64,000 bases of DNA, from NCBI RefSeq assembly GCF_963678975.1, contig NC_089285.1:12151725-12215724 (forward strand), written 5' to 3'. This document shows positions 2,481-64,000 of this stretch, piece by piece. The translations under genes were made by a program, and so were the position numbers. The notes below the pieces were generated by a model that saw only the letters and a list, made by a program, of their open reading frames with translations, was not told where the DNA came from and ran no database searches. The DNA is from Dysidea avara (Eukaryota). Numbering within the stretch: the first letter of the stretch is position 1; every line of letters begins with the position of its first letter.

Positions 2481-7826
<5,346 letters not shown>

Positions 7827-16700: not shown

Positions 16701-19338
16701 TTTTCACCTGTTATGTGAGACATGGATAGTTGGCATTTGCTTCCCCAGTATAACACCAGGTACCCATTGATGTTACAGCTAGGTGGGCCACTTCACCAGG
16801 TCACCAGGTCTCCACTAAGCAGCTGGGTAGACTGGAGCAAAGTGGGTGAAGTTTCTTGCTCAAGGAAACAACAATAGCAACTGGACATCAAACCTGGAAC
16901 CTTTTGAATACCAGGCCAATAGTCTAGCCTCTTGGTTTATATGCTGCCTCAAACACACACAGAGACACAAAACACACAGATACACACAGATACACACAAT
17001 GTACACACCTGGGAGCTATTAGCATTATGGCCATCACTTGCCCAGTACCAAAAGAACTGCTGATCTAATCTCACCTTCACCTCAGACAACTTATTAATAA
17101 CTTGTGCCAGATGGCCACTACTGCCATTGATCATCACTTCATACATCTGAAGGGTAAGTACTCTACATACACATCATCACAATCACCATGTCACAATATT
17201 ACCGTATTCTGGACTACTGTATCACTAGTAATAGGCGTGGGCTCTGAGAACACACATTGAACAGTAGAGCTTGTGTCTACAATAATATAATCTTAGTAAT
17301 GGGACAAATAAGTTAACATTACTCACCGCTAGGCCTCACAAAGTATGTATTGTACCCCAGTGGTGGAACAGTAGCAATGAACACTACTGTGTACTGAGCT
17401 TTACCACGATCACCTCTGACATGCATTGTTGATTTAGGAACAGGCAGCACCTGGTATATAGGAGTGTTAATGTGTGTCTTATATGAATTAGTGTCTTACT
17501 TGACAAGTAATATTCTTTGTAGAGTCCTGGACAGTCACGTTAGGGCTGGATATGGGTACCCTCACAACAACCTTATCATCTGTGTATCCCCTGGGATTGT
17601 ACACTATGATATCAAACTAAACATGTTATGTGCTAATATTGCTATCTCTGAAGTACACAGCACACCTGTTCATTGCTATCTGTACTAGCTGGGCACACAC
17701 TGACATTAAGATATTCGCAAGTCTCTAGTGATAGAGTTGATGATCCATTGTACCTCTTAATCATATCACTGATAGTTTGGGAGATAACACCCTAAAGATT
17801 GTGATGGTATAATGATGAGTGTCGTACATTGTTACTCACCTCACACTCCACTTGGCCAATGTGTAGTCTCTTAGCATAGTCATTAGCAACATGTTGCTTT
17901 TCTGTGCCACTGTGTGGTATATGTACAACATATACTAGTGGTTATAGCATATACATGCCAAAACGCTGAGCCAATTAAGTTAGACTGATTAATGTATTAA
18001 GGTTTTGAAGCTGTAGTGAGAGATGAAAGGATTTATCATCAGAAAAAAAGTAAATGCAAAATAATACAAAGTATAACACTACAATCACTAAAATTTAGCA
18101 AGTTAGAGAGAAAAATTGGGCTGTCTTAAAGGCAAGGGCACTACTGAATTACACAGCATACATACACATACATAAAATTTGTAGTAATGACAATACCTCA
18201 CTGCATCATGGTGCTGAGCCACTGCCATTGCTTTAGCTATATAATAAAAGTATAAGTGATTAGATGTATGTCAGGCAATAGGCTATAGCCACTGAAACAC
18301 TAAACAACATTTGTACAACATACAACAGTACAACAAGGATAGGCCTCCTCTACTAACCTAGCCTATCACATGATGGATTGTTGTCATAGAAACCTCCATG
18401 CATAGCCTCTATCTGCTTACCAACCTGTAGACGAATAATACAAAATGATTATACACAGACAGTCTATATAATAAACTGTACACCCCTGTACAATATATTC
18501 CTTGTAGAATTCTCCATATATACTGTATGTAGAATTACCTGTAACAGAGCATTGTTATACCGGACATATCCCTTGAGGGCAGGTCTACTGGTGAAGTATC
18601 CAGTCCAGTATGACCAGGGTGCTGATCCATAGGGGAAGAAGTCATCTAACTTCACTGACCATGTTAGGTTGGCCTTGTATACGGCATCAATGTATCGTGA
18701 TGGTGTAGAGTAGAACACATTAACTGAGTCATTCTGTAGAGATCATGTCATTCTGTTAACAAGCGTCTGATATTCACAATTCCCTAATATGTGTGGTTTC
18801 ACAAAAGAGTTAGTGTACAGTGTAGTTCATACTCATGTGCACTACATATGCAACAATCAAATTCCAAGTCTTTGCTGAGTATCAACAGACAACACATAAA
18901 CAGCAAACAAGGGGGTTCACTGAAACAAATAACAGCAAATTTAGCTCACCAAACCTCATATCACATACACAAAATTTTACATAACAATTAAGGATTTGGT
19001 AACTATGTAATATGATACAATAAGTGATATCTTATATACATACACAACATACAGTGTGTATACCTTATTAACATGGTGTATCAACTTGTCAAGGTTCTTA
19101 AACCACATGTTGGCATTTTCATACTGGAAGTCTGACCCCATTGTTAACATGATATTGTTGGTACGATAATACTGTGCCTGTATCAGTGATGACAATAGTA
19201 GCATGTTGTATAAGTGTCGTTGTCCTACCTGATCTAAACACACTTTGATAAAGTCATTAACCCTTTCTTCAACGTTATAATCAAACAAATCTTTGTCATC
19301 CTACACAAAAAGAGGCATGGTACACAGTAATATCGTAT

Positions 19339-19418
<80 letters not shown>

Positions 19419-21392
19419 CCTGTATTGGTGGGTCAGAACATTTCTGATCAAAACAAAACCCATCTGGTGGGGTATAATGGTGGTAGAGTACTCCAGTGAA
19501 GATTTGTGTGTCCTCATTAAGACTAGAGCTACCTCTCCATACCATTTCCATTGTCTTCTTGTCCAGACGAGTGTTTTTGTCACCATAATCAAGTCGCGCA
19601 AAAAACAGTCCATCAAATCCCATCTTGGTATAAACCAACAATATTAAAACAAACACAATAACTAATACAAGTTACCATAGCAAACAGAGAGGCCTGCTCT
19701 GATGAATGTCCAAACGTATCTATCTGCCATGCAACACGAGGACGATATTGAGCTCCAAATGTGTCAGTAATAAACCTCAATCCTGTCTCAATCTTGTCAT
19801 AACAAGACAACCATGCCAATTATACCTTCAGTCATTTGATCAATTATGGCATTGTAGTGAGTGGCTCCTTCATCATTCATACACCATCCACCATTAGTGA
19901 ACTCCAACTGACCATTCTCAACCAACTGCTTCACCTAGTAGCATGTACAACATCAACAAGAAACGTAACGTTACTAATAAAAACATATTCAGGGATGGAA
20001 TTGAAATGTATGTTCAAGTACATGTATACAGATGGGACTATGAACAAGTGTCCTGATTATCAAGGTGCCCTAAGTTACATTACACTAACACAGATAGGTG
20101 GTCTTGTTATAGTGAGGTTTCACTATGTCAAGTGGTAATTAACTCACCAGGGATTTAGTATCGTTGTTTTGCTCTTTCCACCATCTTGTAAAGAAAGCCA
20201 TTTCAACATAAATGAAAGTTCGTTCAGTATTCTTGGTAAGCTCCTTGACCACAGTATCTAGTATATACTGGACACCAGCATCTTGTATGGTGTTGTTGGC
20301 TGTAGAGAGAAAAACAAGACAAGGACTAATTTTAACGTCCCACGTGTGTTGTCTACCACACTACACAGTGGTTTGGTCCAACAGTGGGGGAGAATACTGT
20401 ATATCATCCAGTGGATGGCTTCAATGGTCAATAGTTTTAGGTTGCAGTCCATAACATTGTGTTCATATAACAAACATCAACAAGATGATATGATGGTATG
20501 TTGTACCATAGGTACCTAATAGATGTCTCATACCAGTTTGTCAGTGCCCACCCATTTGTATAGGGTCTGGAGTCAGTGTCACATGTCATGACGTCACAAT
20601 AATGGTAACAAGAATGGCAAGTCCGACAACCATACAAAGTAAAGTAAGTAGTATATTTACAAACGGCTACTAACATATTCAAATTCCATCTTTAGTTCTT
20701 TTAAACAGCCTTGGTCATATCACATCTTCACAAAACTTTGCGACAAACTCTTGACACATTAAGTAATTCTATGGTATCTATGGTAACTCTAACACAACCG
20801 TCACAAAAATTTTGTAATTACCAACAACGCAATCTGATTGGTGTTACTTGTTTCCTGTAACACACTACAAATCTTGAATGCTAGAGTGACCAGACCTTAT
20901 GCAAAGGGGCAAGCACTAGTCTTGAGCCCCGTATATAGATATGTGGTTGCCAGACTACGTTTTTTCTGTGTTGGGCAAAAAAACGGTCTGGCTACACAAG
21001 ACTAGTTGTACCACACACTGTGTTGTACAATGATTACTACCTGTGGTTGTACTACACCACACTACACACGTATTGCAAGTGTGCTGCATTGATACAACTT
21101 GAGATGGTCTAGCTATTTATCCAGTAAGACCAGAGATCCTGCAAGGCATGCCACTACATATTTACTGGGAAGCTAGCACCATAAACTATAATACAAAGTG
21201 TGCAGCTGCTGTACAAATTAGTTGTTGCCACACCCATGAATTACCTCCATAGTAATATTGGTCCACAGTCTTTAACCACCCCACATCGTCATGAGTGTGA
21301 GGGATTAAGTGTACGTTCAGCCTCTCACACTGGACCAAGGAGAACAACCCTAACACCAAACACACTCGAGATAACACCATAGCGACCTTCAA
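13742..21392 (-). CDS. MAN2B1: lysosomal alpha-mannosidase (GH38), about 20 exons
   Basis: First exon at 21186-21392 encodes a signal peptide ([22 protein letters not shown]) and [25 protein letters not shown]. Further matches include [35 protein letters not shown] (about 19613-19760), [16 protein letters not shown]... (about 19420-19656), [36 protein letters not shown] (about 18980-19190), [50 protein letters not shown] (about 18500-18718) and [23 protein letters not shown] (about 15060-15349). The terminal exon lies at about 13742-13858 (acceptor ttgttgcag; ...[22 protein letters not shown] stop) and matches the human C-terminus ITLEPMEIRTFLASVQW. Confidence 0.85.
19343..19414. repeat. (CA)n on plus strand, (GT)n on the transcribed minus strand, about 36 units, starting 8 nt inside a MAN2B1 intron directly after the 5' splice site CAG|GTTTTTGTGTG
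   Basis: Read directly. The preceding exon ends ...[10 protein letters not shown]. Confidence 0.9.
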
Positions 21393-21613: not shown

Positions 21614-29932
<8,319 letters not shown>

Positions 29933-30429: not shown

Positions 30430-33400
30430 TGTTAGGATTTTCCTTTATTTAGAACATTTTTTTGATGCAATTAATTATTAAGTTTTTTTGTAATTACATA
30501 GCTACATCACGTGATTGTATTATTCCGTTGTTAATAATGGTGAGAACGTTGTCACCTTGATCAGCTATTTGCTCGAACAACTCATGACATCTATCGCCCA
30601 ACATGGGGCACGAGAGAAGGACCAAAGTAGCTGGGGAATGTTGCTGATCAAGGCCTGTTGAAGTGACGCATGTACCAGATCGACTGATCCAGGACCTCCA
30701 GCTAGCTAGTGTTGTATTTTTTTGCTGCCAAACCTTCAGGACAGCCTTTGCTCTGCCTTTTCATAGAAAGAGAGTCACCCTGTTATTCCTGATCATTTTA
30801 CTGTATGTCTAAACCACTTGAGGCTCCTTCACCTGCATTTAGTGAACAATCCTGAGCTTTTACAAGAGCATGACAGCATACTGAAGGGCAGATAAAACAA
30901 GGTGTAATCGAAATTGTTCCAGAATCTAACACTCCTGTGGCTACAACCGTCCACACCATGGCGTCCTACATCAAGATAAACAAACTACAAAGCTGCCAAT
31001 CATTTATGATGACTCTGCCAAGACAAGAACCAACTCTGCTTCCCTCAATGGTTGTCACAAGGTAGGTCTAAACTTGATCCCAAACTCTTTGATGTTTTGA
31101 TTAGGTTTCGTTGGCATTTGAAGCAGATATTGAAAAAGCCTTTCTAATGATTTCTATTTCTCCTGAAGACAGAGATGTGATGTGACTGTTGTGGCTAAAG
31201 GACCCTGCTAATGATGCCAGTGAAATACTGGGGTTGAGATTCACTCGCTTAGTTTTTGGACTCAGGCCATCACCAGCAATTTTGGGATCAGTGATATCGC
31301 AACATTTAGACAAATACCAATCTCAACATGTCGATGATTTAGGTCTAGGTTGAGAATAATTCTAGTTCACCACAGCTGGAACCACAAGTCTCCTCTAACT
31401 CTAAATTTGTTGTAATTGATAGCACTGGCCAATCCTAACTCTTGGGGATTGTTTGGGACAGCAACCTTGACACATTCACTTTCAGCCCGTCAGAGTTGGT
31501 GGAACAAGCTATCAAACTCCCTGCCAGTCAGAGGTCACTACAGCGAGTCACTGCCAGTATATTCAATCCCTTGGGAATACTCAGCCCCTTTGTAATCAAA
31601 TTGAAGATGCTTTTTCAATTTATGTGTTGTGAAGGTTTAGAAATGGGACCAGCCATTAGAAGGGGAATGCTGAAAACATTGGAATGTACTGATTGCAGAA
31701 TTGAAAACTCTCAACGAAGTTTAATTACCAAGATGTTACTTCAAGATAGATGTATGCCAGATATCTAGTGAACTTCACGGATTCAGTGACGCATCAGAAG
31801 ATGTTTATGCTGCAATTCTATATTTACGTACTGTTTATGATGATGGAAGTGTATCTGTTTGCTTAGTTACCTCCAAAACAGGAGTGTCTCCTGTTAAGAA
31901 ACAAACCATTCCCCGCCTTGAACTACTAGAGCCCTGATATTGAGTCATCTTGCAGACAGTCATGAAACAATTTCCAGTGAAGCTCCCTACCACTTACTGG
32001 GTGGAATCTACTGCCACTTTGTGTTGGATTAAGAGCAACCGTCCTTGGAAGCAGTATGTATCCAGGCGGATGAATGAAATCTGATCACTGTCTGCAGGTT
32101 TTCAGTGGAAATATTGTCCTGGAACAGCCAATCCAGCAGATTTTCCCTCATGTGGATGCAAGTGAATTAGTGAATTGTGCTACTTGTTGGGAAGGACCTT
32201 CGTTTTTGAGATTAAACCAGGATGAGTGGCCTACTCTTCATGATCCACCATTTGATGATGTGATGAATTCAGAGTTATCGAAGACTCCAAAACATCAGCT
32301 GTTAGTGATGTCTTCTCACCGTCGAGTTATGCATGGGGGAGTCAATGTAACCCTTACAGCAGTGCGTGAAAAATATTGGATATTGAGAGGAAAACAAGTT
32401 GTTAAGGCAACAATACGTTTCAGTGTTGTTTGTAAGAAGCAAGAAGGTCCAGCTTATAGCACTGAGCCATCACCTGACCTCCCTGATTTTCGAGTATCTG
32501 ATGATCCCCCTTTGCCCACACCGGTCTGGATTTTGCTGATCCATTATATGTCAGAAGTGGAAAGGGTGCAGCCAAGTTAAGTAAAATGTATGTGTGTCTT
32601 TTTACTTGTGCGTCTACTCATGCAGTACACCTTGAGTTGCCTTGGCAATGAATGTAGACAATTTTTTGTTGGCGTTTAGACCATTTGTTGGCAGCCTTGG
32701 TCTTCCAATAACTCTGACATCAGACAATGCAAAGACGTTTAGATGTTCCTGAAAGGAAATACAGATGATATGTTGATCCTCAGAAGTCCAGCAATATTTG
32801 ACCAATCAGAGAATCACATGGAAATTCATTGTTGCTAGAGCTCCATAGTGGGGAGGCTTTTGGGAGCACGTGGTGCAGACAGTTAAGCGCTCCTTGAGGA
32901 AAGCTATTGGTCGGGCTACCTTGCAGTTTGATGAGTTAAACACCTTACTTATAGAAGTTGAATCAACAGTCAATTGTCGGCCATTAACATTTGTGTATGA
33001 TGATACTGAGGGAGTAAGCTACCCACTGACTCCATCACACTTAATCAATGGTTGTCATTTGACGTCTTCTCCCAGTTCCAGTCATTTTGAAATCATCAGC
33101 ACAAACAAATCACTTACTAGGAGGGCCAAGAACCAACGTCACATTTTTGAAGCACTGGAAAAGAGACTATCTATTGAGTTTGCGTGAACATCGTAAAGTC
33201 AAGCTGAAGAGGACTGGGCCTACAATTAAGGTTGGAGATGTGGTCATTGTGAAGGATGACAATGTGAAACAATTATTTTGGAAATTGACCATGATAGTAG
33301 AATTACTGAAGGGCAAGGATGGAATCACCAGAGCTACTCTCATTAATGTGTCTTGTGGAAATGGACCCCCCAAGATTCTGAGAAGAAGCACAAGTCACTT

Positions 33401-33726
33401 AATTCCAATTGAAGTCAAAGTTAGTCAATGTCAGCCCCTGAGTCTGAGTCAAGGAATGATGAAGTAGAGCCAATCCAAATTCATCCTCATAGACATGCAG
33501 CAGTTTTGGGAGGCTATTTGAAGAGTTTGGACTGAACGTTTAGTGTCATATTGTAGTGTTTGCTCCCCTTGTGATCAAACAAGGGAGAGTGTTAGGATTT
33601 TCCTTTATTTGAAACATTTTTTGATGTAATTATTAGGTTTTTTGTACGTGATTGTATTGTTCTGTTGTTAATAATGGCGAGAACATTGTCACCTTGATTA
33701 GCTTTTCGCTTGAACAATTCATGACA
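30430..33726 (+). mobile_element. BEL/Pao-family LTR retrotransposon, internally deleted (no gag or protease), with pol pseudo-ORFs broken by frameshifts and stops; 5' LTR at 30430-30590, 3' LTR at 33590-33726, TSD ACATG
   Basis: Both LTRs begin TGTTAGGATTTTCCTTTATTT and end ...CATGACA. Flanking ACATG sits at 30425-30429 and 33727-33731. Internal plus-strand translations: reverse transcriptase (AFEADIEKAFLMISISPEDRDVM.LLWL...RFTRLVFGLRPSPAILG), the BEL-type RNase H region (LGIVWDSNLDTFTF..., SSELHGFSDASEDVYAAILYLRTVYDDGSVSVCLVTSKTGVSPVKKQTIPRLEL) and integrase (HGGVNVTLTAVREKYWILRGKQVVK...; YVCLFTCASTHAVHLEL; SDNAKTF; C-terminal ...GDVVIVKDDNVKQLFWKLTMIVELLKGKDGITRATLI). Confidence 0.8.
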
Positions 33727-34525: not shown

Positions 34526-35428
34526 ATGGCAACTTTGACATCCAACCTCGCATCCAGCTTTAAGTACGTGCCTAAACACAAAGAAATTAGTGAGAAGGAA
34601 ATAAGGAGATTGAAAGAGTTTATTGCAAAATCTTCTAGACTATTCGTATTGACAGGGGCCGGCGTGTCAACCGAATCTGGCATAAAGGACTACCGGTCAC
34701 AAGGGGTAGGCCTGTACCACACATCTCAACACAGACCAATGCAGCACAGTGAGTTCATTAAGAGTGAAGCTGCTCGCCAGCGATACTGGGCCAGGAATGC
34801 TGTTGGGTGGCCCATCTTCAGAGAATTTCAACCCAACATAATCCACAGTTACTTAGCAACCCTTGAGAACCAAGGAACATTACATTGGCTGGCCACTCAG
34901 AACGTAGACAACTTACACTACAAGGCTGGCTCTAGGAAAGTCACTGAACTACATGGTACAGTGTATGCTGTTGTATGCTTGAACTGTCATGCTGTCATCT
35001 CGAGGGATGCTATGCAGGAGAAGATCAGTGCTAGTAACCAGGGATGGACAGCAGCAATGTTGGAGGAAGCACCAGATGCTGATGTGGTCATTTCTGAAGA
35101 TGCTGTTAAAAGTTTTGTAACTCCTTCCTGTGATAATTGTGGTGGTATTCTTAAACCAAATGTAGTGTTCTTTGGAGGTTCAGTCAATAAGAGAATCGTG
35201 GACCTGATCAATAGTCAGATTAGTGTAGCAGATGCTTTAATTGTATTAGGGACTTCAGTGCAAACCTACTCAGCTTTGAGACATGTGAAATATGCCAACA
35301 TGATGAGCATACCTATTGGGATTGTAAATATTGGACCAACTCGTGTAGACAGCCTTGCTAACTTCAAGATATCTAGTCGTTGTGGTTATGTGTTTGGAAA
35401 GATTCTCAGCCCTGGAGCTTGTGTTTGA
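34526..35428 (+). CDS. SIRT4: NAD-dependent protein deacylase sirtuin-4, single uninterrupted 300-codon ORF (intronless)
   Basis: The translation matches human SIRT4 throughout: LFVLTGAGVSTESGIKDYRS, QRYWARNAVGWP, LATQNVDNLHYKAGSRKVTELHG, Zn-binding cysteines CLNC...CDNCGG, KPNVVFFGGSV, VNIGPTRVD...KISSRCG. Confidence 0.9.
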   Translation: MATLTSNLASSFKYVPKHKEISEKEIRRLKEFIAKSSRLFVLTGAGVSTESGIKDYRSQGVGLYHTSQHRPMQHSEFIKSEAARQRYWARNAVGWPIFREFQPNIIHSYLATLENQGTLHWLATQNVDNLHYKAGSRKVTELHGTVYAVVCLNCHAVISRDAMQEKISASNQGWTAAMLEEAPDADVVISEDAVKSFVTPSCDNCGGILKPNVVFFGGSVNKRIVDLINSQISVADALIVLGTSVQTYSALRHVKYANMMSIPIGIVNIGPTRVDSLANFKISSRCGYVFGKILSPGACV

Positions 35429-48752: not shown

Positions 48753-49655
48753 CTAGTCTCCAATGCCCAATTTTAGACTAGTCTTCATTCTTTTATCACA
48801 TTGAATCTTGTGATTTACTTTGTGCCTTACTTTGTGCCTTCTGTATACACTCGGCAGCACACACACTTGCCCATGATAGTACTTTAACAAGTTCCTTTCT
48901 GTAACCAGTGCATTTGTTGGGATCTGTAGCAACAAAGCTGCCTCAATTTGTTGTCTGCAATCCATTCCAAACAAGAGAAATGAAGGCTTCTCAAGTGTTG
49001 CATCATGTGGGGTATTCCGCCCAGAGAACTCCATAGAGATATCTGTCCCAATGTAGTCCATAGGTGGCTGCCTGCTTTCTTAACATAGTCTTCAGATCAC
49101 GATTAAACCTCTCTGTGAGTCCATTGCATTGAGGATGGTAGGCTGTAATATTCAACATTTCAGTTCCCAGTATAGACTGCACACATCTTTCATTAGGTGT
49201 AACAATAGGTTGGTACCTCTGTGTGATAATAATGCTTCTGGCACACCAAACAAAAGTATAATATACTCTTCCACCAGTATTCTCACAATACATGTGGTTT
49301 TTTGATCTGGCATGGGGTATACCATTGTCAAGAAGTCCTTGGAGTACCAACACATGTTTATTACCTCTCTCTGTCTTTGGAAGATCCATAGTATCAATCC
49401 CCACTATCTGGAAAGGCCTCTGGACAGGTATTGGTTGCAAGGGAGGTATACCTCACCAGAGGAGAAGTACGTTGAGGGCAGGTCTTGCAGTGTATGGCAA
49501 CATCTGCATACATGCCATCCCACCACCAACAAGTTGTACAATCGATTGCTAGAAAAATGTCTAGCAAGGGGGCCACCGTGAACACTCAGGATTAGCTTTT
49601 CCTTAAGGTCATAATAAGGTGAGTTGGAACCACTGCTCATCTTCTTGACATGCAC
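48753..49655 (-). mobile_element. Ty3/Gypsy-type integrase remnant (HHCC zinc finger plus rve core) with frameshifts; LTR-like repeats at 47693-48330 and 49986-50100
   Basis: Minus-strand pieces: HGGPLARHFSSNRLYNLL...W..M...V..Y...C..C (49404-49655); PFQIVGIDTMDLPKTERGNKHVLV (49003-49440); FGVPEALLSHRGTNL (49152-49397); AYHPQCNGLTERFNRDLKTML and PSFLLFGMDCRQ (48753-49061). ATTGCAATATGATTGGTTACAATTAT occurs at both 47693 and 49986. TTAGTTAACGGAGACTCCG (48145) has a counterpart TTAGTTAACGTAGACTCCG (50030). Confidence 0.6.
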
Positions 49656-53699: not shown

Positions 53700-56064
53700 T
53701 TATTTAAAATTATTCAATGAAGAATTTCCTACAATATCACTTGTAAGATTGTTCCAGTCATTAATTACTCTAGTACTAAAATAGTTGACCCGACATGAAT
53801 GGTGAGCAGGGGGCTTAAGTAATTTATATGCATGACCTCTAGTTTGTGTATTGCGGGAAAGAGTGAAAAAGTTGGATTGAAGTAACCATTCAACATCTTG
53901 AAAAGAAATGTTAAGTCACCACATCTGTGCCTGTACAAAAGAGATGGTAAATTCATTGATGTCAGTCGATCTATGTAAGACTTGTCTCTTAAAGATGGTA
54001 CTAGTTTTGTAGCATGCCGTTGCATACCCTCAAGTTTACGTTGGTCCAATACATAATGGGGTCCTCAAATTACATTTCCATATTCTAATATTGGTCAAAC
54101 CATTGATTTGTAGAATCGTGACAGTACAAATTCATTCAAATTGATAAAGCTTCTTTTCATACAAGCCAATACCCTGTTCGCTTTCATAGCTACTTCAGAA
54201 GCGTGTTGGTGGAACTTTAAATTCGCATCAAATATAATACCCAAGTCCTTATGACAATTAACTGAGTCCAATGAGACACCATTAAGATAGTAGCCTCCAA
54301 AGCTGTGTGTGGCTTGACCAAAGTGAATCACTTTACATTTAGTAGCATTGAACTTCTGTTGCCACGCATCACACCATTTGGCTAGATTATCTAAATCAGT
54401 TTGGAGTTGTACATGGTCTGCCAATGTAGAAATGGTTCGTATAAGCTTGGTATCGTCTGCAAATAAAAACACATGACTTGAGATGGATTTCGGCATATCA
54501 TTAACATAAATAAGGAAGAGAAGAGGTCCTAGAATTGATCCTTGTGGAACGCCACTCTTCACATCTTGCCAACATGATTTTTTCCCCATTTAATACAACG
54601 CACTGTCTCCTATTGGATAGAAATCCATCAATCCATCTAAGAAGGTTGCCTGTAATTCCATAGTGTTCAATCTTATACAATAAACGTTTGTGTGGCATGC
54701 TATCAAAAGCTTTCTGCAGATCCATGTAAATAACATCAACAGGTACTCCTCGATCAAGTGATTTTGTTAAAATATCCATAACATGAAGTAACTGGGTAGT
54801 GCACGAATGGCCCTCTAATAAGCCAAACTGGTGGGATGTCAACAAGTTATTGGAGTTTAGATGTTCTATTATATTAGTTTTAATAATGAAATCCATAACC
54901 TTAACTACTGTAGATGTAAGACTGACAGGTCTACCATCGATTGGCCTGACATCATGGAGCCTATGAATACTCAAGAAGCATGGGGATTTTTCAAGACAGT
55001 ATTTCAAGATATTATTGATAAATTTGTACCACTAACAACGGGAGTAAGGAAGAAAAGAAATATTTACATGTCTCCTGAGGCATTCAGAATGAAGAAATTA
55101 AAGCGGAAATTGTGGAAAAATTATACCTTGTCCAAAGCTGACCATGACTACACAGCTTTTAAGGAAGCTAGAAATAAGTTTCGATGTCTAACAAGAAATT
55201 TAAAGATTAATCACGAACAACATCTAGTCTCTAACATTGGAAGAAGCCCTAAAAGTTTTTGGCATTATGTAAACTCAAATATGAAAACAAGATCTGGTAT
55301 TGATAGTATCCAACGTCCTGATGGTTCTGCAGCTACTTCTGATCCAGAGAAGGCTGAATTATTAAATTCATATTTCGCAAGTGTTTTCACTAATGAAAAT
55401 TTAACCAATTTTCCAGCCCTAGATCCAGAAGCTTCAGTACCAAAGTTGGAAAACATAACAATAACTGCTTCATTAGTATTTGATGAATTGAATAGGCTAA
55501 AAACAGATAAATCTCCAGGTCCAGAGGGTTGGCCTCCACGTATATTCAAATAATTTTCTGACCAACTATCAGTTCCACTGTCCGTTTTATTTAATAAGTC
55601 TTTCCAGTCTGGTGTTCTGCCATCGGAATGGAAAATTGCTTTTGTTACCCCTATTCATAAGAAAGGAAGTAAACCATCTTACATGTAATTATATGAAATG
55701 CTGCACGCATATTGTCAAAGTCAGCTCTGTTGACATTGTATCTAGGGGTGTGGTTTGGTTTGATGGTAGAATAGCAAGATAGGTGAAAACGAATGCATAC
55801 ATGATCACTATTTCCCAAGCCTGGAAGATAATCAATGTGATTGATCATATCAGCTTCATTTGTAAACACGAGGTCAAGCAAACTGGGAGTAGTGCCTGGT
55901 CTAAAACGAGTTGGTTCTTGAATGTGCTGGAATAAAAAAAGATCTTGAATAGTGTCTATGAAGGATTCAACATGAGTATTCCTTGGGTTCACTGACATGT
56001 TAGACCAAACAATATCTTTCATATTAAAATCCCCACATATCAATAAATGAGTAAAATCATTCAA
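53700..56064 (-). mobile_element. CR1/L2-like non-LTR retrotransposon (APE endonuclease, reverse transcriptase, C-terminal domain), 5' truncated, frameshifted and internally rearranged
   Basis: Minus strand: endonuclease C-terminus at 55651-56064 (LICGDFNMKDIVW...HIQEPTRFRPGTTPSLLDLVFTN...PGLGNSDHVCIRF); reverse transcriptase at 54095-55007 (RPVSLTSTVVKVMDFII...GLLEGHSCTTQLL...YMDLQKAFDSMPHKRL...; ...GVPQGSILGPLLFLIYVNDMP...FLFADDTKLI...); C-terminal domain at 53765-54049 (QRHATKLVPSLRDKSYIDRLTSMNLPSLLYRHRCGDLTFLFKM). The plus strand at 54945-55680 encodes the EN-RT linker and RT start of the same family (DWPDIMEPMNTQEAWGFF...DKSPGPEGWPPRIFK...LSVLFNKSFQSGVLPSEWKIAFVTPIHKKGSK), inverted relative to its flanks. 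Confidence 0.85.
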
Positions 56065-58566: not shown

Positions 58567-60673
58567 ATGAAAATCATTCTGGTGGGAGACTCCTCCGTAG
58601 GGAAGACATCTATTATTCTTCAATATATATTTGGGGAATGTGGAACTCCAAAGCCAACTGTATCCTTTTGACAAATATTTGTATGTGACATAGACACCCA
58701 CAAGTGTTACAGTATTTTATGCAGTACTTTCCAAGTACATAATAATGAATCAAAATTATTTCGTTTATGAAAATGAAATATTTATAACTATCTTATTTGA
58801 CTTTGTGGATTTAATTATTATCGTATTTGAAGAATTAAAGCTTATTCCAGTCTGAGTGGTACTAAAATGCACCCACATAATTCCCTAGACTACAAAAATA
58901 ACACCTATACACAAATTGACAAAAAAGTTTATAAAGTAGACCCCATCATTACCATAATCCTTGAGACTAAGGCCATTGTTGATGCCCAACTCACTATACC
59001 ACCTCATCTCTCTATTATATACTACAACAAATGAGAGACAAAAAATACTAAGTAGGAAGACAAATGGAAAATATAAATCACTTTGCCACACAACGATAGC
59101 AGTCCATTCACAGATACCACAAGGGAGTGAACTGGTTTATAGTGCCATTGACAGTCATTAAGTTTTCTCCATTAACTGTGCCCTTATCGATGACGAGTCC
59201 AAGTGGGGCACAGGGGGGCACGTCCCTCTTCTCAATAAAGCTACAAGCAAAACTTCAAACAAGATCAAGATACTCTAATAGAGTAGTACTCTAACAGTCA
59301 CCGCATGTAACACTATTAGAACTTTCCATGCATGCACAGTTGCTGAGTATATATACAAAAACTGGTATCTGCAGCACCATCCCATGGGTCTGCTAGGAAT
59401 TTTGCAGATGTAATGCACCTGGTCCTTTGTATGCCTTTTATTTGACAATAGGATCATAATCAAACTACTTATAACTGTCACTGATCCGTACAACTCTTGA
59501 TTGATGTAGGCCACTTAGAAAGCATTATTACTATACATATATTAGATATTTGTGTACAGTAAAATTTTCAATCATGAAACATATACTTCTGGGGGACTGT
59601 GCCCCACCCCCACTCCATATACCTACTATCCTAGTGCACCTACTAGTATATCCTAGTATACCTACTATCCTTGCCAAACCCTGAATCTGCTCCTGCTTAT
59701 GGCTATACTCAAACTCATGAGTTGGGTGTCAATAAATATGCAGTAGACACTAGCAAGTTATACCAGTTGTTGACTTATATACTGGTTAGTGTGGCACTGG
59801 CTACTTCACTCAGTATGTACATCACAAAGAGAAGAACATCAATGTAAAGTTGTACCTGTGGGACACTATGGGACAGGAGAGATTCAACTCTATTACTGCA
59901 GTGAGTGATCTTTCTGTAATAAGAACCAGTTGTGTTCTGCATTCATTACTGTATGGTTGGGTTAGCTAATTATTTATTTACTGTGTATCAACTCTCCACC
60001 AGCTGTAGTTATATGTTATCCTAGATTCCTACGTATAATTATGACGTTGTATATTCTGTAGAACGTTTACAAAAAAAGTGATGCTGCTGTAATAGTGTTT
60101 GACCTGGTGTCAGAAAACACACTCAATTCAGTACACTGGTGGCTCAAGCAGCTGCACGACAGATTGCCTTCAGAGAAAAGGAACATTCCAGTTGTTCTGG
60201 CAGGAAATAAGGTCTGGATTTATAACATACTTAATGAATCTTGTCTGTGGAGCATATCATAGGTGAAAGTGTTGATTCCCAATTGTAACAAGCTTGCCAT
60301 GCAGTTGTAATTATGTTACACAGTAAACTACCTGCGTGGTTTCTATTCAGTGCATGTGGCCTAACATATACTTTTCCACTGTAGAGTGACTTGCTACCTT
60401 CTGAACATGCAAACATTAAGAGGAAGGCTAGACAAAAAGCTTTTGATCTTGAAATGAAAGACTTCATATTGGTGTCTGCAGTGACTGGTTTTGGTATGGA
60501 TGAGCTGTTTGGAAGAGTAGTGACTTTGGTAAGACCCAAACTTGTTTGCCTGTTTTACATTTGAAATCTTTATTATATTCTAGGCTCTGGACAATGCTAC
60601 TAGTGAAGAATCAGAAAATGTAATACATGTAACAGGAACAGTTGATGCCAATAAAAAATCTTGTTCATGTTAG
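58567..60673 (+). CDS. Rab-family small GTPase, at least 5 exons, C-terminal KKSCSC; closest in pattern to the large-Rab (CRACR2A / RASEF / Rab44) GTPase domain
   Basis: Plus-strand exons: 58567-58659 (MKIILVGDSSVGKTSIILQYIFGECGTPKPT, the G1 P-loop); 59813-59899 (YVHHKEKNINVKLYLWDTMGQERFNSITA, G3); 60062-60210 (NVYKKSDAAVIVFDLVSENTLNSVHWWLKQLHDRLPSEKRNIPVVLAGNK, G4); 60383-60530 (...FILVSAVTGFGMDELFGRVVTL, G5); 60590-60673 (ALDNATSEESENVIHVTGTVDANKKSCSC stop). No canonical switch-I exon (TIGVDF) was found between exons 1 and 2. Candidate upstream exons at 56304-56375 and 56661-56751 could add an N-terminal extension. Confidence 0.55.
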
Positions 60674-60810: not shown

Positions 60811-63800
60811 TTATGTCTCTTTGTATGCATCCTTCATTACCCACGCATCAACAGTAAACATTGCTGAAGTATTCTCAGTAAAGAGGATAACACTATTGGA
60901 GCTGGCTAGGGTGGGGTAGACTCGGGAGGTGATCACTGCTTCACCCTTGTTCACAAACACCTCCACTGCGCTCTTGTCTACCATTATCTCCAGAGTTACT
61001 AACTGGTCATGGCTATTCACTTGAGCAGTATAAGACGACTTTGTTACATTAGTGGCAGGTAGTAAACTTGAATTAATTGTTGAAACTTCCAGTTGTAACT
61101 GATAAAGTACATATCATACACTGGGTAGTCTGGTAACTGATCTCACCTGGGTTGAAGTGGTTCCTGATGTGCAGTTCACACGTGGTACAGGAGATCGGTT
61201 TGCATGTTTTAGCCAACAACAAGTCTCGTGAGACACACAAGGGAATGCAGAGTTGTTGCCATAGTCAACAGTCTACAAGTGTGGTGTGTACATATGAAGT
61301 TTTCTCAAAGCAGTACATGGAGTATTCATTTGTACATAAATTTCTGAGTGAAAGTTGATTTGAAAGTTAAATTCACGCATTTAATGTTATAAATGACAAG
61401 GTGTAGCTACATACTAAATCTGACAAACACTATGTCTATTGTGTGTTATTAGTGGCATACTCACCAGCAGTGGCTGAGGATCAGCAAACGTCCAAGCCAC
61501 ACAACCAGAGTCTGCACAACAAGCTTTCTGACATAATGTTGGATCATGTCCATCCACCTTGAAACTGTGTACAGGATGTGTATCAAACATAACAGTATAA
61601 TGTGTATAAAATGGCATGTTTGCAAAAATCCCATAGGTAATAAATTGTATATGTAATGGATTTAGAGCAAGAGTAAACTCTTCCCACTCTAAATCCATTT
61701 TCAGTGGTTATGCACCAGGTAAGTGATACCAGATTTTATATATGTCAAAGCATCACTGCAACTGCTCTATACAAGAAATAAAGCACACTGAAAGAGTAGG
61801 TGAGAGAGATAAATGTACTATATTTTATCTTGAGACCACTCTTTGAGTGCTACATTTTGCATATAGCATGAGCAAACTGATGCTTTAACTAGTATAGAGA
61901 ACCGCCTTCAACCTGAGGTAAACAACGTGTATGAAACCACTGAGTAGTCTTGAAATCCATTACCATCACAAGCTGTTCTATAGCTACCTGATATAGAACT
62001 GCTGATACATATACGTTAATATTTTATACACGAATTATCTGTATAATAGTTAAAAATAATTCGTCGTTTTAATTTTTGTCGATACAGCCAGTGGTGAAAA
62101 TTTTGACGACAAATTTTTCCTGATTTACGGTAGTACATTCACTGATATAGAATAGGACACTATTTACATACTTGGTATAATCTGCTCCTGGTATATTTGT
62201 ACCAACTGACCATTGTCCAATATGATTACAATTGGTATCTGAATAAACAATATAGCTTCATTAAAGCATCTTACATTAAACCAATCTGCATGCTAGAGAT
62301 TATATAACAAAACATGATTAATATATATACTTCTTCATGATAATCATGTAAGAGTACCATACTAACTAGTACTAAACATACTTACCAGAATTTTGGATAT
62401 TAATAGCAGTATATTCTTTCATATTTTCATCAGCTAAAACAAAGATTCCCACCTTGCTGTTGGGAGAGAACTTTCCCATTATGGTCACTACCATGTGGAG
62501 CTAATATGAAACAATAACTCTACATGTAGCGATAATGAAATACTGCTGACTTGATTTCCCATGCCCCCAAGTTTGTATGTTGCATTTTCTGGAAGAGGTA
62601 TTTGATTAAAGTAGCCCAAGTGATCTCCATGTAGCAAACTTAGCTCCTGCGAACATAACATGTAAATAAGTGACATTGCTTACATTAGACCTTAAGGTAT
62701 GAATGAGTGTGACTCTATACCTGAGTACTGCCTAGCGGTACTGGTGAAAATTATTACTATGCATTTCATCAATTACAACCCCCCAGGCCTTCCCTTCTCA
62801 AGTGAAAGTCTTGTACAGTACTAACCTCCACAGGGTTGAACAACAAGGTGTTATCAGGAGACAATGATATTACCCGTGGTACACTCTGCATACCTAAGGA
62901 TATAAAATATACACTATCATTACAGCTATATAGTGAGCCTTTATTGTTGTGCCTGTACAAATGACTTTTGGATTCAGTACATGGTCTGAAAGTATCTCAT
63001 AGATAATACCATACACTGTATTTTGCTAGCTTTACAAATTGCTTTTATCTTTTCTTGCAGCACTACTAATGCCATGCATTAATCAACCTGATTTAGTGTT
63101 CTGACTGTCCGTGGTGGAAATGGTAGCACTAATTTCAAATTCTAAATCAATCTGGAAAACATACAATTGAACCATGAATCTACATATAGGTACAATTAAC
63201 GAAGCTTTTGAAAAATGTAAAAGTTTATTTCACAATATTTTATGTTGCATGTTACTACATGCTATGGTTGTTATAAACTTTAGTTATATAGGAATTTACA
63301 ATGTGTTTATGAGTTGTGATGAAGAGTGCTACAGAAACTACTAGCATGTACTAGTCACCATAGGACATCTACCATATTACCTGCCCAGCCATTTTTATGA
63401 ATAGTATCATCAGATAGAGACTCTGATATCCAACCATACACTATCCTCCTACCATGTGAATCAAAGAAACTATTAGCAGCATAGAAGTGACCATAGTCAA
63501 CCATTCCTTTTGAAACTGTTTGGAATTTGTAACCAGCTCCCTGAAAATGATGATGATGACGGTAGGCTTTGCAATATCAGTCTCACCATTTTGCCAACAA
63601 ACCATAGTGATTTCCCCAGGTTGGGAGATGAGTAGATATACACATAGAGTTGATCAGTAATAGGAAACATGTCTACACACCTGTAGAAAACAAGATACTT
63701 GACAACATCTCACAGTATTTAAAGTATTATGGTTTAGTACCCAGAACAGACCAAAGAGTTACGTATGGGGGGAGGGGGGAGCGAGAAGGCAACTTTGGCA

Positions 63801-64000
63801 ATTGAAGCTACACAGTGGAATTTGAAGCATATAACATACGTACATGGAGGTAATTTTATATCTGCAATACGTTTTTGTAAATATAACTATATTGACAATT
63901 ACATAGTGGATATTGTGCTGGTACTGGTTAACAAGTATGAATGGCTATTGTGCCGGCATAGTAGTATTCCCTGAGTATTCCCCGAGTATTCGACTTTAGG
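60811..64000 (-). CDS. glycoside hydrolase family 32 (beta-fructofuranosidase / invertase-like) gene with spliceosomal introns and an embedded PAN/apple module; 5' part lies beyond the window end
   Basis: Minus-strand exons:
- 63381-63540: GAGYKFQTVSKGMVDYGHFYAANSFFDSHGRRIVYGWISESLSDDTIHKNGWAG
- 62816-62881: MQSVPRVISLSPDNTLLFNPVE
- 62555-62650: ELSLLHGDHLGYFNQIPLPENATYKLGGMGNQ
- 62390-62495: ...KFSPNSKVGIFVLADENMKEYTAINIQNS
- 62172-62236
- 61463-61690: ...FKVDGHDPTLCQKACCADSGCVAWTFADPQPLL
- 61145-61270: ...DYGNNSAFPCVSHETCCWLKHA...
- 60811-61097: ...LVTLEIMVDKSAVEVFVNKGEAVITSRVYPTLASSNSVILFTENTSAMFTVDAWVMKDAYKET stop
The DYGxDFYA...GRR...GW...GWAG...LPRE(L)...PV.EL motif and the beta-sandwich tail ifVDxSsvEvFvNxGexvxTsRvYP are GH32 hallmarks. 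All boundaries are GT-AG. Confidence 0.75.

Follow-up and report, generated by a model that had tools for sequence, protein, structure and literature searches.

A sponge GH32 gene with an apple domain nested in its C-terminal beta-sandwich, and its likely eukaryotic ancestry

How did a sponge come by a gene for a GH32 enzyme, and what does a PAN/apple domain do inside it? Both questions are raised by a gene on the minus strand at the end of a 64,000-nucleotide stretch from the demosponge Dysidea avara (assembly GCF_963678975.1, contig NC_089285.1, positions 12,151,725 to 12,215,724; this whole stretch is hereafter the window). A 2024 survey counted GH32 in one sponge species and ascribed the GH32 genes of animals to bacterial transfer; it neither names nor analyzes the sponge gene, does not mention PAN, and has a supplement without the name of the sponge species (PMC11311677). 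Literature searches that paired GH32 with PAN domain, with choanoflagellate, or with sponge gave nothing relevant. Sequences with both domains are already in RefSeq and EukProt under automatic names, and, as far as the literature could be searched, neither their architecture nor their history appears to have been described.

We found that the C-terminal beta-sandwich of the Dysidea protein houses a true apple domain, that the same insertion occurs in other eukaryotes, and that all introns of the gene recur in a sponge of another class. From the eukaryotic nearest relatives and the 14 introns in common with the calcareous sponge Sycon ciliatum, we infer an old, vertically inherited holozoan gene. 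Our favored explanation as a whole, which joins this architecture and ancestry to an active enzyme, has a probability of roughly 0.65. While animal GH32 is currently presented as a textbook case of bacterial transfer (PMC11311677), the sponge locus points to a second and different history.

Gene structure and the apple insert

The nine exons read by hand in the window, from 63680 down to 60811, encode the C-terminal 371 residues of a 590-amino-acid protein, and the assembled product is identical to the matching stretch of RefSeq XP_065891879.1 (P0034). All eight complete introns within the window are GT-AG, and a ninth is present in part. As the first base of the first window exon completes a split GA|G codon, the gene runs on past position 64000. 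To follow it there, we used a D. avara ENA contig (L002) whose 12,587-base overlap with the window has 0 mismatches; position x of the contig corresponds to window position 71699-x. XP_065891879.1 was splice-mapped exactly onto this contig in 15 exons with 14 GT-AG introns, and the last nine exons agree base for base with those read by hand. The original prediction had described a reading frame split by at least seven GT-AG introns and had called for a spliced protein extended past 64000; the complete model supplies both. In transcript order, the gene consists of the following parts (the first two from the splice map of P0034 on L002):

Past the window end, minus strand: exons 1-6, coding for the signal peptide, the nucleophile of the NDP motif, and GDP
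63681..64000, minus strand: 3' part of intron 6 (888 bp in whole)
63587..63680, minus strand: exon 7, residues 220-251; its first base, G, closes the split codon GA|G of the acid/base Glu220 in the AECVDMF ("EC") motif
63381..63540, minus strand: exon 8, residues 252-305, final blades of the GH32 beta-propeller (VDYGHFYAA, GRRIVYGW)
62826..62893, minus strand: exon 9, residues 305-327, end of the GH32 N-terminal domain and linker (SVPRVISL)
62551..62646, minus strand: exon 10, residues 328-359, initial strands of the C-terminal beta-sandwich
62386..62500, minus strand: exon 11, residues 360-398, sandwich strands through EYTAINIQ, the strand directly ahead of the insertion point
62172..62238, minus strand: exon 12, residues 398-420, start of the PAN/apple insert (NCNHIGQWSVGTNIPGADYT)
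61465..61564, minus strand: exon 13, residues 420-453, core of the apple domain (FKVDGHDPTLCQKACCADSGCVAWTFADPQPLL)
61147..61272, minus strand: exon 14, residues 454-495, second half of the apple domain (CVSHETCCWLKHA ... NCTSGTTSTQ)
60811..61098, minus strand: exon 15, residues 496-590 and the stop codon TAA (60813-60811); here the chain returns to the beta-sandwich with LQLEVSTINS (the "l.vDRs.S" strand), followed by VDKSAVEVFVNKGE and TSRVYP

Pfam searches of the 371-residue fragment returned GH32N (3.3e-16), GH32C (2.9e-17, residues 146-362), and, within the GH32C span, PAN_4 (4.2e-12, residues 192-256). The full protein gave GH32N at 1.9e-44, GH32C (PF08244) at 1e-16 over residues 369-581, and PAN_4 at 3.4e-12 over residues 411-475. 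The scores lie far above the curated cut-offs (for PAN_4, 46-50 bits against 27), and in the same search neither GH43 nor any other family outscored GH32. The GH32C match is split in two with PAN_4 between the halves, and the fragment likewise matches solved GH32 enzymes in two blocks flanking the insert; the solved beta-fructofuranosidases and invertases nearest in kind are those of Thermotoga maritima (1UYP), Frischella perrara (7VCP), and the Arabidopsis cell wall (2AC1). A GH32 gene with a PAN/apple domain inside its C-terminal sandwich had been proposed from the letters of the window, and the profile searches bear out both the family and the placement. The Cys-rich motifs CQKACCADSGCVAWTF and CCWLKHA are present in the protein, as is the VDKSAVEVF strand.

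The insert is a true apple/PAN domain of ~100 residues in one loop of the beta-sandwich. It matches both the PAN_4 and the PAN_1 models, and when 12 such inserts were combined into a profile, the four apple domains of coagulation factor XI were all recovered at E 6e-27 and those of plasma kallikrein at 1.5e-23, with Toxoplasma TgMIC4 scoring more weakly (0.007). Four cysteine columns (C45, C49, C55, and C86) are invariant among the 12 aligned inserts, as are L and K in the C.LK motif. The pattern C..C....C..ft ... C.LK is common to the sponge insert and to the apple domains of factor XI, plasma prekallikrein, and (there of lectin type) the apicomplexan micronemal proteins TgMIC4 and EtMIC5. 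Whereas apple domains of the factor XI type are units of tandem arrays, the sponge insert is a single domain nested in the loop of another, and in Dysidea it differs from the factor XI/kallikrein type in its additional cysteines (CC doublets; 9 of the 16 cysteines of the Dysidea protein lie in the insert). An AlphaFold2 model of the full protein, based on an 80-sequence alignment, reached a mean predicted local distance difference test (pLDDT) score of 89.2 and a predicted template modeling score of 0.86, with the strands of the GH32C sandwich at high pLDDT. Residues 398-496 form strands (408-412, 417-422, 443-447, 471-475, and 482-492) and one helix (429-436) at pLDDT 65-93. The model of the isolated apple domain was poor (pLDDT 60), and a Foldseek search with it gave noise only.

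Bacterial GH32 enzymes with appended carbohydrate-binding modules exist, for example CBM66 on Bacillus SacC. In both cases a GH32 enzyme gained a noncatalytic module, but CBM66-type modules are appended, whereas the apple domain is inserted within the sandwich. The apple domain, a putative binding module nested in the beta-sandwich, makes a domain architecture that is new to this well-studied enzyme family.

Distribution, shared introns, and ancestry

To see how widely the architecture occurs, we ran a HMMER scan exhaustively over 1.84 billion representatives and then searched for the insert in the best 150 clusters. The top database match of the window gene was a cluster of six D. avara RefSeq proteins from one 14.98 Mb scaffold. 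The scan gave 131 matches below 1e-30, the best of them only 35% identical to the Dysidea protein. Of the 150 top-scoring representative clusters, 18 carry a homologous apple domain in the same loop, so that the statement in the original prediction that no GH32 family member with such an insertion was known no longer holds. Pfam confirmed the order GH32N, PAN_4, GH32C in those insert-bearing relatives examined. The named carriers outside Dysidea are the calcareous sponge Sycon ciliatum (XP_065192341.1), the choanoflagellates Salpingoeca urceolata and Choanoeca perplexa, and the amoebozoans Clastostelium recurvatum and Protostelium nocturnum; other members come from transcript-like or eukaryotic contigs. 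A Phalansterium protein has a PAN match at the same place that stays below threshold (20.5 bits against a cut-off of 27). In the alignment, the sandwich strands on either side of the insert are always "E.T.i" and "l.vDRs.S", and the inserts align well with each other (D.PG.DY ... C..C.D..C.aWT ... C.LK ... SG). One ancient insertion event would be the simplest reading of these alignments.

The family also includes variants in the number of apple domains. Two proteins from Joint Genome Institute (JGI) metagenomes carry two, P0068 in tandem at the insert position and P0159 with the extra one at the N terminus. The second-best match, P0044 (L004, Logan SRR27710300, 3.3 kb, ~70% GC), keeps the catalytic triad, has neither apple insert nor introns, and shares the derived motifs PPWAPG, ASYVGDP, and GPRAEC with Dysidea; its lineage could have lost the insert or never had it. 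A scan of JGI metagenomes gave only distant GH32s at 23-30% identity and no additional sponge copies, and a profile of the holozoan group, used in a word-indexed search for homologs, brought in P0215 alone.

The exon structures connect the two sponges. The Sycon gene (L005, OZ025899.1:11595244-11624802) is 23.5 kb long with 16 exons, and a tandem paralog lies upstream of it. From intron 1 to intron 14 its phases are 1,1,2,0,1,2,0,1,0,0,1,2,0,0, the same series as in Dysidea, and each of the 14 Dysidea introns has a Sycon counterpart at an identical or gap-shifted place in the alignment, two of them within the apple domain. Crown Porifera divides into two halves, one with Calcarea and the other with Demospongiae. 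Taken together with this phylogeny, the common introns imply that the gene is older than the sponge crown group and would have been intron-rich already in the last common ancestor of Dysidea and Sycon. The introns flanking the insert are in phases 1 and 0, and exon shuffling of a phase-symmetric apple cassette was ruled out on these grounds. A closer ortholog (L001, ENA ERZ25069580), on a eukaryotic contig where it adjoins a REV1 gene, has the same 15 exons and a product 65% identical to that of Dysidea; two of its introns have GC donors (L001 5785 and 8152) where Dysidea has GT.

We computed a neighbor-joining tree from 445 columns with the insert removed and, as the distances are near saturation, treated it as supporting evidence only. 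A long-branched group with 91% bootstrap support holds Dysidea, the L001 ortholog, Sycon, the two choanoflagellates, P0159, P0044, and P0046/P0097/P0130. In agreement with it, the members of this group have in common a change of the RDP motif to GDx, and GPRAEC/GPRVEC is common to Dysidea, Choanoeca, and P0044. The large remaining cluster has named members that are all bacterial (Paenibacillus, Bacteroidetes, Saprospiraceae); the sponge sequences fall outside it. The GH32-apple proteins of amoebozoan type likewise stand apart from the bacterial-named cluster and join the plant invertases and fructan exohydrolases with 89% bootstrap support. A further, rather improbable possibility raised by this grouping is that an apple-bearing eukaryotic GH32 lost its insert and gave rise to the plant invertases.

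Several routes could have brought the gene to the sponge. That a symbiont or prey gene was misassembled into a sponge scaffold has a vanishingly small probability and is excluded as the source: the part of the gene in the window has eight spliceosomal introns, its GC content (0.35-0.38) is in line with the rest of the window, animal genes and retroelements flank it, the same sequence stands in a contig of an independent ENA assembly (5.77 Mb), and the gene is modeled on the 14.98 Mb RefSeq scaffold. The expectation that this is an animal gene, free of bacterial contamination, was confirmed by introns, composition, and neighbors alike. Transfer from a bacterium into the sponge ancestor, with later gain of introns and capture of a host apple-domain exon, would agree with the repeated bacterial transfers to which the survey attributes animal GH32 genes, its one sponge species among those counted (PMC11311677), and named bacterial GH32s, such as those of Paenibacillus, do score at E ~1e-20 with 24-33% identity. 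Yet the best match, distant as it is, and most of the top-scoring relatives are PAN-bearing eukaryotic proteins, a homologous insert occupies the same loop in Amoebozoa and choanoflagellates, and the asymmetric phases around the insert misfit capture by simple exon shuffling. The scan also found no relative of the insert in prokaryotic species genomes, a weak negative as it is sensitive to close relatives only. We consider this route very unlikely; given the eukaryotic GH32-PAN relatives and the introns shared with Sycon, the bacterial framing in the original prediction does not suit the sponge gene. The difference from the lepidopteran GH32 genes is plain: these (e.g., Bombyx mori BmSUC1, PDB 7BWC) are intronless and cluster with bacterial proteins (PMC11311677), whereas the sponge gene carries an apple domain, has eukaryotic relatives, and is split by 14 introns common to two sponge classes.

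A gene handed from one eukaryote to another, from a protist (e.g., prey or a symbiont) into the sponge stem or into sponges and choanoflagellates separately, is a more serious contender, although still an unlikely one. The patchy distribution could come from such transfer, the named members being only sponges, two choanoflagellates, and Amoebozoa and most others environmental eukaryotes, and the internal resolution of the tree is weak (19% for Dysidea with Sycon, 48% for the choanoflagellate pair). Besides this patchiness, the saturation of the tree (distances ~1.2-1.3) and the long branches of the 91% clade, which may be an attraction artifact, weigh against vertical descent. On the other side, the 14 shared introns date the gene before the split of Dysidea and Sycon, derived motifs are common to Dysidea and Choanoeca (GPRAEC/GPRVEC, VGDP/VGDV), and sponges and choanoflagellates form the clade with 91% support. 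With eukaryotic GH32-PAN proteins as the top match and as many of the best matches, and with the gene in Calcarea, choanoflagellates, and Amoebozoa, the sequence comparisons favor an old eukaryotic subfamily, and the data are better explained by vertical inheritance from a pre-animal ancestor than by transfer from bacteria. We regard the architecture and this ancient eukaryotic ancestry, taken jointly, as very likely; the gene would then have been lost from most other animals.

Catalytic residues, selection, and function

Several GH32-apple paralogs stand in tandem on one strand, and the window gene closes the array. The PAN exons of the copies P0001, P0033, and P0034 lie at ~524.3, 541.9, and 551.4 kb of ENA contig ctg11867l; P0001, on the same strand, is ~27 kb from the window gene. 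Another copy has its 3' end (L002 3-1305, past window position 64000) ~1.8 kb upstream of the start codon of the window gene, and a full-length paralog, P0037, is found elsewhere on the same scaffold. The ratio of nonsynonymous to synonymous substitution rates (dN/dS) comes to 0.25 when the window gene is compared with the neighboring paralog (0.34 for the apple part, 0.18 for the remainder); against the L001 ortholog it is 0.125, with dS saturated in that comparison. Values for the GH32 part are 0.14-0.18. These ratios indicate that the GH32 and apple parts are both under purifying selection.

We read the catalytic positions by hmmalign against the canonical GH32 profile. All three catalytic residues, namely the nucleophile Asp, the transition-state-stabilizing Asp, and the acid/base Glu, are kept in the three full-length Dysidea copies, the L001 ortholog, and P0044. 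In Dysidea, the nucleophile is Asp41 in WLNDPHP, encoded upstream of the window in the transcript sense (past position 64000); the RDP motif reads YVGDPH, with the Asp kept and the Arg changed to Gly as across the sponge/choanoflagellate group; and the codon of Glu220 is split by intron 6, its last base being window position 63680. Given that the D/D/E triad is retained in the Dysidea copies, a secreted beta-fructofuranosidase is the likeliest function, and we judge the odds that the protein is catalytically active to be slightly better than even. With its hydrophobic, signal-like N terminus and 13 N-glycosylation sequons, the protein would enter the secretory pathway and probably be heavily N-glycosylated, consisting of a five-bladed beta-propeller catalytic domain and the C-terminal sandwich with its apple domain. 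As a retaining exo-beta-fructofuranosidase, it would free fructose from sucrose and/or bacterial or algal fructans, with microbes ingested by or associated with the filter-feeding sponge as the presumed source, and the apple domain would probably serve as an integral module that binds carbohydrates or proteins, targeting or anchoring the enzyme. This gives a testable link between sponge feeding and microbial fructan or sucrose.

The main rival to an active enzyme is a lectin-like role, in which the holozoan proteins bind fructans or other glycans, for instance in the recognition of bacterial exopolysaccharide, and the triad of Dysidea is incidental. Several observations weigh against catalysis and keep this rival open. 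All through the holozoan group, Gly has replaced the Arg of RDP, and Ala stands where Trp would precede EC; Sycon has Tyr as nucleophile and Lys as acid/base, S. urceolata has Ala and Gln, and P0046/P0097/P0130 lack all three catalytic residues. With catalytic residues lost in several members, the conserved function of the subfamily may not be catalysis, and these proteins nevertheless keep full length, signal-like N terminus, and apple domain; the members with lost residues also have weak Pfam GH32N scores. The Dysidea copies, L001, and P0044, in contrast, keep the triad and most substrate-pocket motifs (WLNDP, FYQCNP, SASGS, GDP, EC, DYGHFYA), the GH32N score of the Dysidea protein is strong, and the dN/dS of its GH32 part is low. 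We consider this rival rather unlikely. Sycon, having lost nucleophile and acid/base, looks like a pseudoenzyme. Plant cell-wall invertase homologs with catalytic defects exist, and there as here the scaffold persists after loss of catalytic residues; the inactive-looking members in our case are holozoan.

The subfamily offers a natural series, from active-looking to catalytically dead, for studying the change from enzyme to lectin, and it is a candidate part of the digestive or recognition toolkit of bacterivorous animal ancestors. More speculatively, and in our estimate rather improbably, the gene could be an ancestral pre-animal secreted module for bacterial or algal fructans, handed down from a phagotrophic holozoan ancestor and lost in other animals, which was repeatedly turned into a dead fructan or glycan binder (in Sycon and some choanoflagellates) and possibly into a sensor of bacterial levan or an opsonin.

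Neighboring genes and repeats in the window

Pfam searches of the neighboring open reading frames (ORFs) identified NIF3, SIR2, a pyridoxal-dependent decarboxylase, ankyrin, GH38, a weak CARD, reverse transcriptase, endonuclease, and integrase; the flanking genes and retroelements are ordinary eukaryotic ones. A Ras-family small GTPase gene (59850-60564, plus strand) is convergent with the GH32 gene, their 3' ends being ~250 bp apart; its Pfam match of 8e-12 comes from a hand-joined, approximate peptide. The SIR2-family (sirtuin) ORF of 300 amino acids (34526-35428, plus strand) is intron-free amid intron-rich neighbors. Retroelement fragments lie at 54095-56064 (minus), 49003-49440 (minus), and 32074-33467 (plus), comprising a long interspersed nuclear element with endonuclease and reverse transcriptase and long terminal repeat-type elements with integrase. 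Long (TG/CA)n microsatellites at 3770-4207, 19234-19656, 27502-27834, and 29534-29932 extend into ORFs, and their translations appear as CVCVCV and THTHTH runs at the flanks of the ankyrin and GH38 exons.

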